43,043 nt of DNA. Source: a bacterium (GTDB lineage Bacteria; Patescibacteriota; Minisyncoccia; Phycocordibacterales; UBA5272). The notes under the pieces are model-generated. The model did not search any database. It saw only the letters and a list, made by a program, of their open reading frames with translations, and was not told the origin of the DNA. Position 1 is the stretch's first letter; the number at the start of each line of letters is the position of its first letter. The stretch spans positions 1 to 43,043 of the forward strand of contig JANNCJ010000048.1 of the NCBI GenBank assembly GCA_031386485.1. Reading direction: 5' to 3'. A program made the position numbers and the translations under genes. Below, one piece after another: positions 2,344 through 38,355 of this stretch.

Positions 2344-2400
2344 TAGAAAAAGTGGTACGGCGACTTTGCCACACTTTTCTCACAAATAATACTAACACAA
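2344..2400 (-). promoter_or_regulatory. conserved 57-nt leader, copy B
   Basis: Ungapped match to 466-522. Lies 7 nt upstream of the ATG at 2336. Confidence 0.6.
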
Positions 2401-6681: not shown

Positions 6682-6746
6682 TTAGTTTCGCTGTGTCCCG
6701 TGTAGCCCTGCGCCGTATGGTGCGGAGCGTAGTGGGATTTATAATT
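6682..6746 (+). pseudogene. decayed copy of the 37004-37150 Cys-rich sORF / GC-rich hairpin element
   Basis: Shares ttagttt[c/t]gctgtgtc and cctgc[g/a]ccgtatggtgcgg with 37028-37089. In the homologous frame it has no ATG and two stops (..PCAVWCGA*). Confidence 0.5.
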
Positions 6747-14090: not shown

Positions 14091-14176
14091 GGAGACGTGG
14101 CTGAGTGGTCTAAGGCACCTCACTGCTAACGAGGCGACCCGTCAAAGGTCCGAGGGTTCGACTCCCTCCGTCTCCG
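14091..14176 (+). tRNA. tRNA-Ser (GCU)
   Basis: Acceptor ggagacg/cgtctcc, anticodon loop ctgctaa, long variable arm, T-arm gaggg-ttcgact-ccctc. CCA is not encoded. Confidence 0.9.
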
Positions 14177-14251
14177 CCTACGTCCGCTGAAGCGGACTAC
14201 GGCGGACAAAGTCCGCAAGTAGTTCGCGAAAGAGGATAAGATATTATAAAT

Positions 14252-14491
14252 ATGTTCTATGTATATATATTAAAATGTGCTGACGGAAAGCCGTATACTG
14301 GCTGTACAAATGATCTAAAAGATAGGGTTAAAAGGCATAAAGCTGGATATATTGACGCAACAAAATCTGGACTACCAGTTGAATTAGAAAACTATTTTGC
14401 ATTTAAAGATGAAAAGGTTGCTTTTAGATTTGAGAAATATTTAAAGTCAGGTTCTGGGAGAGCATTTGCTGTGAAGCATTTTGAGAAATAA
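14252..14491 (+). CDS. GIY-YIG nuclease family protein (79 aa)
   Basis: FYVYILKC...GKPYTGCTNDLKDRVKRH matches the GIY-(x10)-YTG and R-x3-H motifs of the short YhbQ/URI-type family. Confidence 0.85.
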   Translation: MFYVYILKCADGKPYTGCTNDLKDRVKRHKAGYIDATKSGLPVELENYFAFKDEKVAFRFEKYLKSGSGRAFAVKHFEK

Positions 14492-14501
14492 GACTTGTGA
14501 C

Positions 14502-14590
14502 CGACTCCCTCCGCTCCCCTCATACGCCTCGCTTTATCTCGGCTTCGGCGTGACACAGTCCGCCAAAACGAGCGATAAAGGGAAATAAAA
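14502..14590 (+). repeat. diverged direct repeat of the tRNA-Ser 3' end plus trailer
   Basis: cgactccctccg-ctcc (14502-14517) matches the tRNA at 14159-14175. The following cggcgtgacacagtccgcc...cgagcgataaaggg parallels cggcggacaaagtccgc...ttcgcgaaagagg at 14200-14235. Confidence 0.6.
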
Positions 14591-19881: not shown

Positions 19882-20035
19882 GATGAACAGTAGAATGATA
19901 ATAAAATCATAATGAAATCCTAAAACAAAGCATACTCAAAATACCCTTATAAAATAAGACTTATTTGATATAAAATTGAATACGAACCCCACTTCGCATA
20001 AAGCTACGTGGGGCAAGCCAAATGTGGCCACACTT

Positions 20036-20081: not shown

Positions 20082-21200
20082 CTACTCTAACCCCAAGAAT
20101 TCATTCTTATAATCCTTTTTAAAATTAAAACTTCGCACTGCGAATGAGGAGACGAGGCCGAGCATGAGCGCTGCTGATATAAAGTGTGAGCCGCCATAAG
20201 ACATAAATGGTAGTGGTATACCCGTAACTGGTAGGACTCCAATATTCATACCAATATTAATCACACTATGAGTAAATATCCAACCAAAAGCGCCCACACA
20301 AATTAGTACAAAAAAGTTATCTTTAAGTACTGACGCGATGTAAATGATGCGGGAGAGTAAAAGTATGACAGTGCTAAGTAGTAACACCACGCCAATAAAT
20401 CCCCACTCCTCACTATATGCTGAGAATATAAAATCTGTCTCATGCTCAGGAAGATAATTAAGCCTCGACTGCGTACCATACCCTACGCCCTTACCAGTAA
20501 GTCCTCCAGAGCCGATAGCGATCTGAGACTGATAGACATTATAACCGCTACCTCGTATATCACGTAGTGGGTCAAGGAAATTAAGCAATCTATCCTTCTG
20601 ATACTGCTTAAAGATGCTAGTCCAAAGAATAGCAAATATAATTATAAAGACTCCGACCATGGCAAAGAAATGCTTCTTAGAAAGTCCTGACATCAATATC
20701 ATCACAAACCAAATAGCGAGTAGTACCATAGCCGACCCAAAGTCAGGCTGCTTGAGTGTAATAGCTACCGGCACTAAAGTGTATATAAAAGATATAATAA
20801 TATGTCTGATATTCTTAATCTCCACATGTCTCTTGGTAAAATACTTAGCAAGCAGTATAACAAGTGCCATCTTAGCAAAGTCTGCTGGCTGTAGTGAAAA
20901 TGCTCCAAAATCTATCCAGGCCTTAGACCCCTTGATAGAGCTACCAAAAATAAGAGTAGAGCCGAGTAGTAAATTAGTGAATATGTAAAAAATTAATACA
21001 CTCCTGGTGTCGCGAAGAAATGTATAATCAAAACGTGAGATAGTTATAAAAGCAATAAGCCCTATAATAATCCAAGTAGCTTGCTTTACCATATACTGAT
21101 CTCCAAGAGTAAAGGTGGACATTGTGAGTAATCCAAAAGTCGCCATAAAGGCTATAGCAAAAAATAATATTAGATCGAACTTTAATATCTTGCTTATCAT
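20082..21200 (-). CDS. SEDS-family peptidoglycan polymerase (FtsW/RodA)
   Basis: 10-TM profile; QPADFAKMALVILLAKY, GSGGLTGKGVGYG and ETDFIFSAYSEEWGFIG motifs. Confidence 0.9.
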   Translation of the reverse strand: MISKILKFDLILFFAIAFMATFGLLTMSTFTLGDQYMVKQATWIIIGLIAFITISRFDYTFLRDTRSVLIFYIFTNLLLGSTLIFGSSIKGSKAWIDFGAFSLQPADFAKMALVILLAKYFTKRHVEIKNIRHIIISFIYTLVPVAITLKQPDFGSAMVLLAIWFVMILMSGLSKKHFFAMVGVFIIIFAILWTSIFKQYQKDRLLNFLDPLRDIRGSGYNVYQSQIAIGSGGLTGKGVGYGTQSRLNYLPEHETDFIFSAYSEEWGFIGVVLLLSTVILLLSRIIYIASVLKDNFFVLICVGAFGWIFTHSVINIGMNIGVLPVTGIPLPFMSYGGSHFISAALMLGLVSSFAVRSFNFKKDYKNEFLGLE

Positions 21201-34814: not shown

Positions 34815-35642
34815 TCATAAAGACTTTGCAGCAATTTTACTCATGTCTACCATAAAATAATAACCCTTCTCGTCCTTTTCGAATATATATTTTCTTTTCT
34901 TACCTTCAGCCTCACTTTTTACTTTTTCTACTGCACTTCCAAATTTTTCCTTTAAGAACTCGTAATAGAGTAATGTTCTTTGATACATTTTATTTTCGGT
35001 TGTAGATTTGCTACTTGAAACTATGTTTAATATAAAGTGTCTGATTTTGTCCATTGGCCCACTGTCTCTTTTAAGTATATATACTAACTCATCAAAATCT
35101 TTATCTAAATAAAACTGTTTAGATTCGCCTCCTTTCGTAATCGTAACGAATTCTTTTGCAAATTCTACTTTAAGTCCATCCACACCTTCCACTGATTCAC
35201 CAACCAATTTAGAGTATTCAGATTTTAGCAATCCAGAAAATTTCTCGTATTCACCTATGCTATATCTTGCGTCTGTGCCACCTACTTCAACTCTAGCATT
35301 CGGATGTAGTCTTGCAAATTCTAAAAAGGCATTTTCTGTTCTCGTGCCGAACTCTTTTTGCTCATCTTCATGTAAGCCTAATAAAGGTGTCACGTGTCTC
35401 TCCCCTTTTAATCCAAAGCCAAAATTATACGTCCCAGTCATATTCTTTAACTCTTCAAAAAATAAACTGCACTCGAATCTTCCTAATTGTCCTAGTTTGA
35501 AGCTGCTTTTATATACTGTTAATCCATTAACATTAGCAACTTCAAATTTGGTCTCTACGACTGCTGCTCTAACATTATCAAGTAGATTAAAACTTGGAAC
35601 ACTATTGCTTGTTGCTGGTTGAGGAGAAAAATTACCATCCAT
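34815..35642 (-). CDS. orphan protein (275 aa)
   Basis: Long ORF with TATAAT and a short GC hairpin just upstream. No recognisable motifs. Confidence 0.55.
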   Translation of the reverse strand: MDGNFSPQPATSNSVPSFNLLDNVRAAVVETKFEVANVNGLTVYKSSFKLGQLGRFECSLFFEELKNMTGTYNFGFGLKGERHVTPLLGLHEDEQKEFGTRTENAFLEFARLHPNARVEVGGTDARYSIGEYEKFSGLLKSEYSKLVGESVEGVDGLKVEFAKEFVTITKGGESKQFYLDKDFDELVYILKRDSGPMDKIRHFILNIVSSSKSTTENKMYQRTLLYYEFLKEKFGSAVEKVKSEAEGKKRKYIFEKDEKGYYFMVDMSKIAAKSL

Positions 35643-35645
35643 ATT

Positions 35646-35677
35646 GCTTGTGTCCCGTCGAACGGGATATTATAATT
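35646..35677 (+). repeat. minimal remnant of the GC-rich sORF/hairpin element
   Basis: gcttgtgtcccgt-cgaa-cgggatattataatt shares both flanks with 6690-6746 (gctgtgtcccgt...gggatttataatt). Confidence 0.5.
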
Positions 35678-35750: not shown

Positions 35751-36881
35751 CTAGACATTAATACTTGGATCAATAAAATCTTCTATAGACAACACTCTGG
35801 TAGCTGACTCTGGGTATAACTTTAAAAACTGCTTAAAAGATACATCTTCCTTTTTCCATTTGCATTCAGTCGCTACTATTTTATCATTTTTATGTTCGAT
35901 AAAATCAATCTCTAGCTTTGTGTCAGTTCTCCAGAAATAAACTTTGCTTGGGAGATTTTCTAAGTTCGATTTTTTAAGTATTTCAAGAAACACAAAATTT
36001 TCAAACAGCGCTCCTTTATCTTTTCTATTTTCAACCAAGTCAAAGTTGTCGACTATGGCATTCCTGATTCCCAGGTCAAGAAAAAATATTTTAAAAGACT
36101 TTTTCAGTTCATTCCTTCCATTTCTAGAGTAAGATCCAATTTTTTTAATTATGTATGCTTGCTCTAAAAGTTTTAGATATTTCTGTACACTGTCACGGCT
36201 TATGCCTACTGCTTGGGCGATTTCATTTATAGAGACTATTTGACCTATTTGAAATGCTAGCATCCTAATAACATCCTCAAAGATTTGAGGATTGCGTATT
36301 GATTCATAAATATAAATATCTTTATACAAATAATTCGTGGCTATATTTTTTAAAATCTGAGTTTTGACCATTACATTACTTTCTCGCACCACTTCAGGAT
36401 ATTGGCCGCTCCTTAGCATTTCACTGATATCCTCTTTTTTTATTTCTTTACTGCCTCTAACTTCTTCTAGACTGAGTGGGTATAAAGTAAATTCAAATGA
36501 TCTCCCGGTCAGAGGCTCATTAATTTTATTTGCGAGATCAAAAGAAGATGAACCTGTGGCGATAATTTGTACATCCTTATATGTGTCGAGATAAAGTTTT
36601 AATATAGCTCCAATGTTTTGTATAGTCTGAGCTTCGTCAAGGACCACAATTTTTTTATTTTTGAACATTTGGTGAAGCGGCTTTGGGTCACCAAGAATAA
36701 AATTATTCCTAACCTCGATACTTTCACAGTTAAAATACTCCCCATCTCCACCATAATCTTTTACAAGCTTTTTAGCGAGAGTGGTTTTTCCTGCTTGCCT
36801 TGGCCCAAATACTAAAATAGCTTTACCTCTAAAAAGAAGCTCCCTAATATTTTTCTCTATTGTCCTCTCAAAAATTACCAT
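35751..36881 (-). CDS. P-loop ATPase + wHTH + PD-(D/E)xK protein, paralog 4
   Basis: Walker A GPRQAGKTT, Walker B VVLDEAQ, wHTH SINEIAQAVGISRDSVQKYLKLLEQAYII, nuclease motif EIDFIEH...ATECKW. Confidence 0.85.
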   Translation of the reverse strand: MVIFERTIEKNIRELLFRGKAILVFGPRQAGKTTLAKKLVKDYGGDGEYFNCESIEVRNNFILGDPKPLHQMFKNKKIVVLDEAQTIQNIGAILKLYLDTYKDVQIIATGSSSFDLANKINEPLTGRSFEFTLYPLSLEEVRGSKEIKKEDISEMLRSGQYPEVVRESNVMVKTQILKNIATNYLYKDIYIYESIRNPQIFEDVIRMLAFQIGQIVSINEIAQAVGISRDSVQKYLKLLEQAYIIKKIGSYSRNGRNELKKSFKIFFLDLGIRNAIVDNFDLVENRKDKGALFENFVFLEILKKSNLENLPSKVYFWRTDTKLEIDFIEHKNDKIVATECKWKKEDVSFKQFLKLYPESATRVLSIEDFIDPSINV

Positions 36882-37003: not shown

Positions 37004-37150
37004 ATGAAATGTCTCTCTTGTTTGGTTTTAGTTTTGCTGTGTCTTCTTAGCGCGTGCACCGCGCAGTCCTGCACCGTATGGTGCGGGACGAAGTGGTGTG
37101 CCGTCGTGGAGGATGTTAGAACTAAGTTTAGCATAAAGTGTCATGGGTAA
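37004..37150 (+). CDS. possible 48-codon Cys-rich prelipoprotein-like sORF (alternatively a GC-rich structured element)
   Basis: MKCLSCLVLVLLCLLSAC|TAQSCTVWCGTKWCAVVEDVRTKFSIKCHG*. Lipobox LSAC. No clear Shine-Dalgarno. Overlaps two strong GC hairpins (37050-37064, 37066-37089). Confidence 0.35.
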   Translation: MKCLSCLVLVLLCLLSACTAQSCTVWCGTKWCAVVEDVRTKFSIKCHG

Positions 37151-37212: not shown

Positions 37213-38355
37213 TTATCTGAAACCAAAGATATCTTTATAATTTACGCAGTATTCTGGCATACTAATAACTTTTGTTTTTGCTTTGCTATAGAGAGCCAGG
37301 AATTTGTTAAAAACAACTTCCTGGTTACTCCACTTACATTCATAAGCTTTTATCTCCTCATTTTTATTCAAAACAAAATCTACTTCTATCTGTTCTTTTG
37401 TTCTCCAGAAATATATTTTTGTTGCCCAGAAGTCCAGCGACTCTCTTTTTAGAAGCTCCATAAAAATATAATTTTCAAAAAGAAAACCTTTATCTGCTCT
37501 ATCTTCTACTAGGCCAAAAGAATCAATGACAGCGTTACGAACGCCAAGATCAATAAAATATATTTTAAATGATTTTTTTAATTCGTTACGCTGATTTGTA
37601 TTAAACGAATTTACTCTTTTGATAACATATGACTGTTCTAATAGTCTTAAATACTTGTCTACGGTAAGCCTACTTATTCCAAGAGTTTTAGATAATTCAT
37701 TTACAGAAACCATTTGACCTATTTGATGTGCGAGGAGCTTGAGTAAATTTTCAAAAATTGTGGGATTTTTAATATTTTCAAAAATATAAATATCTTTGTA
37801 CAGATAATTAGTCGTTATGTTACGAAGTATGTTTATTGCTAAATCTTTATCGTTTTCTGCTACCACACTCGGATAATTACCTAACCTTAATAGTTCAAAA
37901 AATTTATCTTTTGTTGGTGTCGTAAGCTCTATCTCTTCTGTAGAAAGTGGGTATAAAGTGAATTCAAATGACCTTCCTGTTAGCGGCTCATTGATTTTAT
38001 TTGCCAGATCAAAAGAAGATGATCCTGTGGCTATTATTTGCACATCTTTATATGTGTCTATAAAAACTTTTAAAATAAAACCTATATTCATTACTGTCTG
38101 AGCTTCGTCTAAAACTACAATTTTCTTATTGCCTATTAAATTTTTAAGAAGCTCGGGCCTACCCTCTTGCATTGCAGACCTGACGTCCATCAGCTCACAG
38201 TTAAGATAAAGACCTTTTTCTCCGTATTCTTCTACAATCTTTTTAGCAAGAGTGGTTTTGCCTGCCTGCCTTGGGCCAAAAATTAAAATTGCCTTCCCCT
38301 TAAACAGTAGTGGTTTTATTCTGTCTTCGAGTTTCCTTTTAAATATTTTTTTCAT
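37213..38355 (-). CDS. P-loop ATPase + wHTH + PD-(D/E)xK protein, paralog 5 (tandem duplicate of paralog 4)
   Basis: A 39-aa block DTYKDVQIIATGSSSFDLANKINEPLTGRSFEFTLYPLS is identical to paralog 4. Nuclease motif EVDFVLN...AYECKW. Confidence 0.85.
   Translation of the reverse strand: MKKIFKRKLEDRIKPLLFKGKAILIFGPRQAGKTTLAKKIVEEYGEKGLYLNCELMDVRSAMQEGRPELLKNLIGNKKIVVLDEAQTVMNIGFILKVFIDTYKDVQIIATGSSSFDLANKINEPLTGRSFEFTLYPLSTEEIELTTPTKDKFFELLRLGNYPSVVAENDKDLAINILRNITTNYLYKDIYIFENIKNPTIFENLLKLLAHQIGQMVSVNELSKTLGISRLTVDKYLRLLEQSYVIKRVNSFNTNQRNELKKSFKIYFIDLGVRNAVIDSFGLVEDRADKGFLFENYIFMELLKRESLDFWATKIYFWRTKEQIEVDFVLNKNEEIKAYECKWSNQEVVFNKFLALYSKAKTKVISMPEYCVNYKDIFGFR

Follow-up and report, generated by a model that had tools for sequence, protein, structure and literature searches.

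We read the GC-rich block at positions 37029-37124 of the plus strand not as a peptide gene but as two nested copies, in part decayed, of a short selfish hairpin repeat that is widespread in Patescibacteria and would be nicked by a GIY-YIG nuclease, and we give this reading as a whole a probability of roughly 0.7. The block is one nested copy of a large hairpin-repeat family and a real structured element, and the 48-codon ORF that crosses it is an accident, not a small secreted-protein gene. Here, the window denotes the whole stretch of DNA analysed, namely the 43,043 nt of contig C9, which belongs to a genome of 742 kb in 105 contigs (36.6% GC, estimated to be 91% complete). By the relatives of its pyrG, this genome falls within Patescibacteria, class Paceibacteria/Parcubacteria. 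The dispersed family was revealed by BLAST and nhmmer searches against the organism's own genome; 31 repeat copies were aligned (alignment A1), and a covariance model (R1) was derived. For comparison, we used 60 genomes of the same order, including 12 congeners, as well as a phylum-wide set of 80 stretches (579 kb in total) of CPR loci with the motif. Note that a strict pattern matched nothing in 40 of the relatives, and the covariance model was needed to detect copies there.

The ORF at 37004-37150 (plus strand, 48 aa, MKCLSCLV...KCHG and a stop) exists and reads as given in the original prediction, which had offered two interpretations: a secreted Cys-rich lipoprotein precursor whose other copies are its pseudogenes, or, with slight preference, a dispersed REP-like structured element that is open by accident in one copy. 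The second is what the copies support, and we judged the ORF to be a chance open frame across the repeat. The size of the family, its insertions within genes and beside start codons, its fusions to tRNA genes and its association with GIY-YIG genes were not part of the original prediction. A lipoprotein gene would fit the ATG-initiated 48 codons with a hydrophobic N-terminus and the motif LSAC, as well as a TAAAAT hexamer, seen by eye at -13 to -8 of the ATG, near the leaderless promoter geometry of this genome. However, the product has no homologue among 5.8 billion clustered proteins, and of 68 copies of the element, only 11 keep the equivalent frame open along its length, the other 57 being interrupted. 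In the register of the sORF, most copies have a TAG stop because the consensus GCG-TAG reads GCG-CAG only in the 37-kb copy. What had been taken for a signal peptide, the hydrophobic segment, results from reading as Leu, Val and Cys codons the conserved, T-rich 5' flank TTTTGCTGTGTC that all copies share. In addition, the better-conserved copies are the closed ones, and the family members that are translated use the opposite strand. A conserved ORF with signal peptide and lipobox that is open in relatives or paralogues, as expected of a bacterial prelipoprotein gene, was not found, and a lipoprotein precursor is already close to refuted, with hardly any probability left to it. When coding was compared with structure in the copies of this genome, along the lines suggested earlier, the frame was mostly closed and the stems covaried strongly.

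The plus strand of 37028-37125 folds into one nested hairpin of 98 nt with 38 pairs, 11 of which are G.U, at a dG of -52.1 kcal/mol (z -7.5), and none of 200 shuffles folded as well. The minus strand of the block reached only -27.5 kcal/mol (z -2.5). Within this nested double hairpin (37029-37124), a decayed outer copy surrounds a complete inner copy at 37047-37101 (plus strand), which has P1 GCACCGC/GUGGUGU, the loops GCA/GAA, a 10-bp P2 and a GUAU loop, and which is matched by R1 with 23.3 bits (E = 5e-4 in the window, E = 0.009 genome-wide). In our reading, the outer copy consists of the 5' half TTTTGCTGTGTCTTCTTAG and the 3' half CGTCGTGGAGGA, assigned by eye against other nested copies. 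Two hairpins had been proposed for this DNA. The 10-bp one, GTCCTGCACC-GTAT-GGTGCGGGAC at 37066-37089, is real; the other, gcgcg-tgcac-cgcgc, is absent from the best fold, in which TGCACCGCG pairs with GTGGTGTGC, so that the gcgcg/cgcgc hairpin is not used. The block lies between two minus-strand paralogues encoding ATPases with AAA_14 and DUF4143 domains (Pfam): in mRNA sense, the stop codon of the gene at 37213-38355 is 111 nt upstream of the element, and the gene at 35751-36881 is 165 nt downstream. A candidate tRNA 3'-half remnant upstream of the 37-kb copy was rejected, as it aligned with a score of 16, below the mean of 17.4 for shuffled sequences, and so was not significant.

On the folding strand, the unit of the family can be written as TTTT(G/A)CTGTG-UCCCGCG-W-AG-(variable inner hairpin, 6-40 nt)-CG-W-AGUGGGAUU, and its parts are, in order, a 5' flank, the stem P1 (UCCCGC/GUGGGA), a symmetric 3x3 loop G-W-A/G-W-A, a variable inner stem-loop P2 and a T-rich tail. 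Units are 28-55 nt in length, or 98 nt when nested, as in some copies where one copy sits within the loop of another. A two-half pattern matched 42 times in the genome, compared with 4 times for its reversed control. In A1, 96.4% of the cells are paired, compensatory changes occur in 6 of 8 pairs, and 29 cells are double-sided; this level of pairing and covariation was reached by none of 500 shuffles. The alignment supports P1, the 3x3 loop and the closing pairs of P2. R1 gave 78 matches in the 742-kb genome at E <= 1 and 65-68 at E <= 0.01, while the 60 relatives have 0-7 copies each and 11 of the 12 congeners have none. Rfam 15, at gathering and E-value thresholds, gave no match to the element over the window, the locus and 8 contigs with canonical copies, and our literature searches found no description of this CPR repeat. 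The family thus looks undescribed in the literature searched, though repeats of its kind are known (RPE, REP, Ssn/NTS). A LOOT RNA (RF03000) was recognised separately on the minus strand of locus L017 (contig C81; 11947-12078) with 52.1 bits, above the gathering score. Two sets of candidates were excluded from the family: exact 20-mer matches inside long ORFs (VPHQTVQD, PAPxGAG) are coding coincidences, and a 57-nt leader family at 466-522 and 2344-2400 (minus strand; GTGAGAAAAGTGTGGCAAA.TCGCCG..) is unrelated to the hairpin repeat.

Besides the 37-kb block, the window holds several copies, only some of which had been listed before. The copy near 6.7 kb (6686-6740, plus strand), UUUCGCUGUGUCCCGUGUAG-P2-CGUAGUGGGAUUU with a long P2, had been called decayed, whereas it is a canonical member (R1 40.7 bits, E = 1.5e-8, against 5e-4 for the 37-kb copy). 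From these R1 scores in the window, it is therefore the 37-kb copy that is the weak, nested member. The compensatory change from T-A to C-G that had been noted in the copy near 6700 is correct, as read off the sequences. The third stretch listed, at about 35646-35677, does keep UGUGUCCC...GGGAU, but nothing more, and its membership is marginal: the remnant UGUGUCCCG-UCGAA-CGGGAU at 35643-35670 (plus strand) reaches E = 1.7, which is not significant, and it abuts the ATG of the ORF at 34815-35642 on the opposite strand. Two further copies, both on the minus strand, had been missed. One is a canonical short copy, UGCCCCACGUAGCUUUAUGCGAAGUGGGG, at 19984-20023 (48.9 bits, E = 1e-10), downstream of an FtsW/RodA gene (20082-21200, Pfam). 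The other, at 14170-14216 (E = 5e-5), is fused in tRNA sense to the 3' end of the tRNA-Ser(GCT) gene at 14091-14178 (plus strand), whose last bases, TCCGCC, form one arm of the hairpin stem. A gene for a 79-aa single-domain GIY-YIG nuclease, the candidate partner of the repeat, comes next at 14252-14491 (plus strand; PF01541, E = 3e-12). After its stop codon, at 14494-14580 (plus strand), we recognised by eye a decayed second unit, consisting of a repeat of the tRNA-Ser 3' end and a degenerate hairpin, which was not significant with the model.

Orthologous sites in relatives were informative as to how copies arise. The pyrG gene carries an in-frame insertion of about 30 nt (..FDPTSLKLRGAGTK..) that is absent from 7 relatives, and the rpsQ/rplN and rplN/rplX junctions and the region upstream of rpsR are short and free of the element in congeners. 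The reverse was seen at recJ, where congener G012 has a copy and the genome analysed has plain TGTTATAAT-N6-ATG. The empty sites at pyrG, rpsQ/rplN, rplN/rplX and rpsR therefore identify the copies as insertions, and, at the level of these comparisons, new copies are shown to arise in this way. No target-site duplication was found at the pyrG, rplN, rplX and rpsR insertion sites. Upstream of tyrS, congeners carry an AT-rich leader of similar length instead of the element. Some congeners have unrelated, AT-rich hairpins upstream of tyrS (G011, G005) and of rplN (G012, G007), with about 12 nt of A-rich sequence between hairpin and ATG; these hairpins hint at either a recurrent leader of hairpin plus A-rich spacer or heavily decayed old copies.

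Six copies lie in frame inside long ORFs of the genome analysed (pyrG, a sigma-factor-like gene, a uvrB-like gene, a PPIase, an integrase-like gene and a 733-aa protein), and further copies form C-terminal tails. The exact core CGCGWAGCTTTA(N)GCGWAGT (19/20-mer) was present in more than 118 stretches among the matches listed, almost all of them labelled CPR, and the many classes represented among these matches include several Parcubacteria and Microgenomates groups, Berkelbacteria and Peribacteria. In 17 of the 80 CPR stretches, the motif is spanned by an ORF that continues for 60 or more codons in either direction; 13 of these 17 ORFs are in the same sense, with the recurrent peptides ..PTSLKLRG.. 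or ..HFAKATRGK... Judging by eye from the flanking protein sequence, the host proteins of such in-frame copies look like TsaD, aaRS, TrmD, KsgA, MiaA and TypA. In other CPR stretches, the motif precedes uvrC, rplT, rpsC, tsf and the gene for the CCA-adding enzyme.

A second recurrent location is the 3' end of tRNA genes. The hairpin is fused to this end in 6 of 33 tRNA genes, in tRNA sense (contigs C9, C27, C55, C71 and C82), and since the terminal bases of the tRNA make up one stem arm, its 3' end has its complement in the opposite arm. All three GIY-YIG loci of the genome analysed adjoin tRNA genes with copies nearby. In the window, the order is tRNA-Ser, copy and GIY-YIG; on contig C85 it is tRNA-Val, copy and GIY-YIG; and at about 1166-1900 of contig C15 a copy lies immediately upstream of tRNA-Gln, which is followed by two tandem small GIY-YIG genes. 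The 80 CPR motif loci (579 kb) contain 6 GIY-YIG homologues, all of them within about 110 nt of the motif, and a layout of tRNA 3' end, copy, spacer, inverted copy, TATAAT and GIY-YIG recurs among these loci. A GIY-YIG homologue was found in 12 of 15 element-positive and in 18 of 45 element-negative relatives, counts that come from kindred and not independent genomes; the exceptions to the link are thus three element-positive relatives without a homologue and 18 element-negative relatives with one. For the 79-aa protein of the window, the best solved relatives are the UPF0213 proteins 1ZG2 and 1YWL. From these gene neighbourhoods, the repeat is probably partnered with a tiny GIY-YIG nuclease.

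The folding strand was more stable than its complement in 64 of 68 copies (mean values of -11.3 and -7.7 kcal/mol, respectively), and genes tend to be read from the other strand: flanking genes are antisense to the folding strand in 51 cases and in the same sense in 29, and copies within crude ORF calls are antisense in 18 of 20. These counts bear on whether the hairpins could be ordinary intrinsic terminators that merely share sequence. A T-rich stretch does follow the stem on the folding strand, and a few gene-co-oriented copies lie just past stop codons, for example on C11 and C71 and at 19984-20023 of the window. However, besides the mostly antisense orientation, many copies are located within ORFs or separate a -10 box from an ATG, and neither the internal loop nor the 5' flank, both conserved, is typical of terminators, so that we regard terminators as very improbable.

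In mRNA sense, the unit reads (A)AUCCCAC-UWC-GC..GC-UWC-GCGGGACACAG(Y)AAAA, and in 9 copies its 3' end, ...GGGACACAG(Y)AAAA, is 0-2 nt from an ATG. The genes concerned are rplN, rpsR, tyrS, uvrC, a PPIase, a DHH protein and others, and the spacing to the ATG is similar in other genera. The 16S rRNA 3' end (GGATTAATTCC / GGATTAATTCCAAATTGG; locus L021 on contig C6, 2725-2760) has no CCUCC anti-SD; loss of the anti-SD has been published for a subgroup of Parcubacteria (PMC9297842), and we found no paper that links it to leaderless promoters. Over 655 crude gene starts, TGnTATAAT was found at -15 to -7, with T at -1, depletion of G and an SD-like word in about 9%; the promoter position, the T at -1 and the scarcity of SD words therefore point to mostly leaderless mRNAs, which this organism appears to use. 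Outside the window, copies of a TATAAT subfamily start exactly at the last T of the extended -10 box (TGTTATAAT followed by ACYWC-TACG..) and precede recA, uvrC, topA, greA, thrS, lemA-like genes and others (contigs C50, C52, C54, C68, C38, C102, C73 and C70). Removing the element in silico at several of the loci restored TATAAT-N5/6-ATG. Insertion may target the boundary between the -10 box and the spacer in strong leaderless promoters; alternatively, the repeat may carry the promoter with it. The idea that the subfamily, with recA and uvrC in it, represents LexA operators was rejected, since the genome has no LexA and the covariation of the stem opposes it.

The regular spacing between tail and ATG counts against the selfish reading, as it could mean a function in expression rather than tolerance. 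On this account, the element would function in cis as an RNA in mRNA sense, serving as a leader, for stabilisation or for processing; it would have spread because it is useful and would allow expression of genes without a leaderless promoter of their own in an organism whose 16S rRNA lacks the anti-SD. The near-constant distance to ATGs across genera and the copies inside the ribosomal-protein operon would fit such a role, as would the rarity of SD words at genes most of which have TGnTATAAT at -15 to -7. Nevertheless, the strand that would have to act is the one that folds worse in 64 of 68 copies, and a transcript of the TATAAT subfamily starting about 7 nt past the -10 box would drop the 5' stem arm. 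Moreover, the unit is found in frame within pyrG and further ORFs as well as in C-terminal tails, the genes concerned are expressed in congeners that lack it, and the copy number varies from 0 to about 70 among close relatives. A cis-acting RNA is thus unlikely, though it is less so than terminators.

As a further possibility, an HUH Y1 transposase, either a RAYT or a TnpA of the IS200/IS605 kind, could mobilise the repeat as an element of the REP or PATE type. The strand-specific hairpin, a GTAG-like word beside the stem and the lack of target duplication are as for REPs, and an IS200-like Y1_Tnp gene is present at C63:4246-4614, with fragments at two contig ends. However, the hairpins that flank this gene are not those of the element by sequence; copies without any Y1_Tnp are seen in G012, G056 and G059, whereas G034 has four Y1-like genes and no copy; and the gene that adjoins copies in many CPR genomes is a GIY-YIG and not a Y1 gene. 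We therefore consider mobilisation by a Y1 transposase quite improbable. As for a TnpB-type partner (PF07282), only sub-threshold matches were obtained, and this candidate was dropped. The 146-aa Y1 transposase of the IS200-like element (locus L031 on C63, 1459-1899, minus strand) has its own subterminal hairpins and adjoins a markedly GC-rich stretch, and partial copies at two contig ends (C17:1-96 and C91:5684-5746) therefore indicate that this IS is present in several copies, at which the assembly breaks. The IS appears to be unrelated to the hairpin family. In addition, many genomes of the order, such as G040, G034 and G055, encode proteins of 220-250 aa with partial matches to Y1_Tnp (profile positions about 30-119), up to five per genome.

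In the reading that we prefer, a selfish repeat served by a GIY-YIG nuclease, the strand-specific fold suggests that the element acts as a single strand, most likely of DNA. The small single-domain GIY-YIG nucleases beside the tRNA-gene copies would recognise and nick this single-stranded repeat, a step modelled on SsnA of Neisseria, which binds and cuts NTS hairpins as ssDNA only. Purifying selection would then keep the orientation in which the mRNA-sense transcript folds weakly and is free of stops, and such selection would explain why copies are found upstream of ATGs, behind tRNAs and in frame, mostly antisense. More speculatively, and with only a modest chance of being right, the system could be CPR-wide and Ssn-like, with tRNA-lodged GIY-YIG ssDNA nucleases and a conserved 28-nt hairpin driven into essential genes and between -10 box and ATG, the hairpins gating incoming ssDNA or tuning leaderless initiation. 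If so, the hairpins would be more than junk: they would gate the survival of incoming ssDNA at uptake in bacteria that depend on scavenged DNA or, alternatively, would be template-strand structures that tune initiation at leaderless promoters.

These results remove a false small-protein candidate and assign much of the GC-rich, seemingly structured intergenic DNA of an AT-rich reduced genome to a single repeat family, which should be masked in gene calling and ncRNA screens. The family also adds loops of 10-18 residues to essential CPR proteins such as those of pyrG and uvrB, aaRS and TsaD, and because it splits leaderless promoters from start codons, it bears on the tolerance of insertions in SD-less, leaderless CPR bacteria. 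If the link to GIY-YIG holds, CPR would provide a large natural set of pairs of site-specific ssDNA nuclease and hairpin, of the Ssn/NTS kind.

Several known systems resemble the family in part. Like MITEs (Correia, ERIC and Chunjie among others), the repeat is non-autonomous, small and hairpin-forming, would be co-transcribed with its neighbours and is tolerated in operons; unlike typical MITEs, it has no terminal inverted repeats that match a resident IS and no target-site duplication, and it is far smaller. With REP/REPIN sequences and their RAYTs it shares short, strand-specific dispersed hairpins, sometimes in inverted doublets beside a presumed mobilising gene, and the lack of target duplication, but the associated gene encodes a GIY-YIG protein and not an HUH Y1 transposase. 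No RAYT that is flanked by, and co-occurs with, the repeat was found; the genome analysed has only the IS200-like TnpA with its different end hairpins, and the presence of Y1_Tnp did not track the element across the 60 relatives. Rickettsia palindromic elements (RPE) are described as sequences of about 100-150 bp found in frame in unrelated genes (Ogata et al. 2000, as summarised in PMC10969869). As far as that summary goes, they are likewise palindromic repeats of a reduced genome that lie in frame in housekeeping genes, to which they add a conserved peptide, and also between genes, and the CPR repeat shares with them the in-frame insertion in unrelated genes (pyrG; 6 ORFs here; 17 of 80 other CPR stretches). 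It differs from the elements so described in its unit of 28-55 nt (98 nt nested) instead of about 100-150 bp, in its unrelated sequence, its Patescibacteria host and phylum-wide spread, and its candidate partner nuclease.

The Ssn/NTS system shows further likeness. The GIY-YIG protein SsnA of Neisseria meningitidis (94 aa) binds the hairpin repeat NTS, CGTCATTCCCGCGMAVGCGGGAATCYRG, and cleaves next to it (Chenal et al. 2025, PMC11893778); it acts on ssDNA only and on one strand only, and 71% of SsnA homologues have such motifs in the surrounding regions (PMC11893778). Both systems have a single-domain GIY-YIG gene of about 80-95 aa flanked by a dispersed hairpin repeat of 20-50 nt in tens to hundreds of copies, and in both the repeat is orientation-specific with a conserved, non-palindromic flank. 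Correspondingly, what is expected of an Ssn/SRM system was found here in that copies of the hairpin repeat are far above chance and small single-domain GIY-YIG genes, such as the 79-aa one of the window, have copies beside them. By eye, the CPR 5' arm TCCCGCG(A)AG is also nearly the same word as NTS ...TTCCCGCGMAVG. On the other hand, the CPR repeat has a second CGWAG word and an internal 3x3 loop, its cassettes are at tRNA 3' ends, and its copies lie in frame in genes and between -10 box and ATG. The published SRM pattern HGTCWY..RNCYNB gave three matches in the genome, none of which overlaps the element (shuffled genomes gave 0-5). Since this pattern is unmatched and the best relatives of the nuclease are UPF0213 proteins, we call the CPR repeat and its putative nuclease, as compared by their sequences, an analogue of Ssn/NTS and not a member of it.
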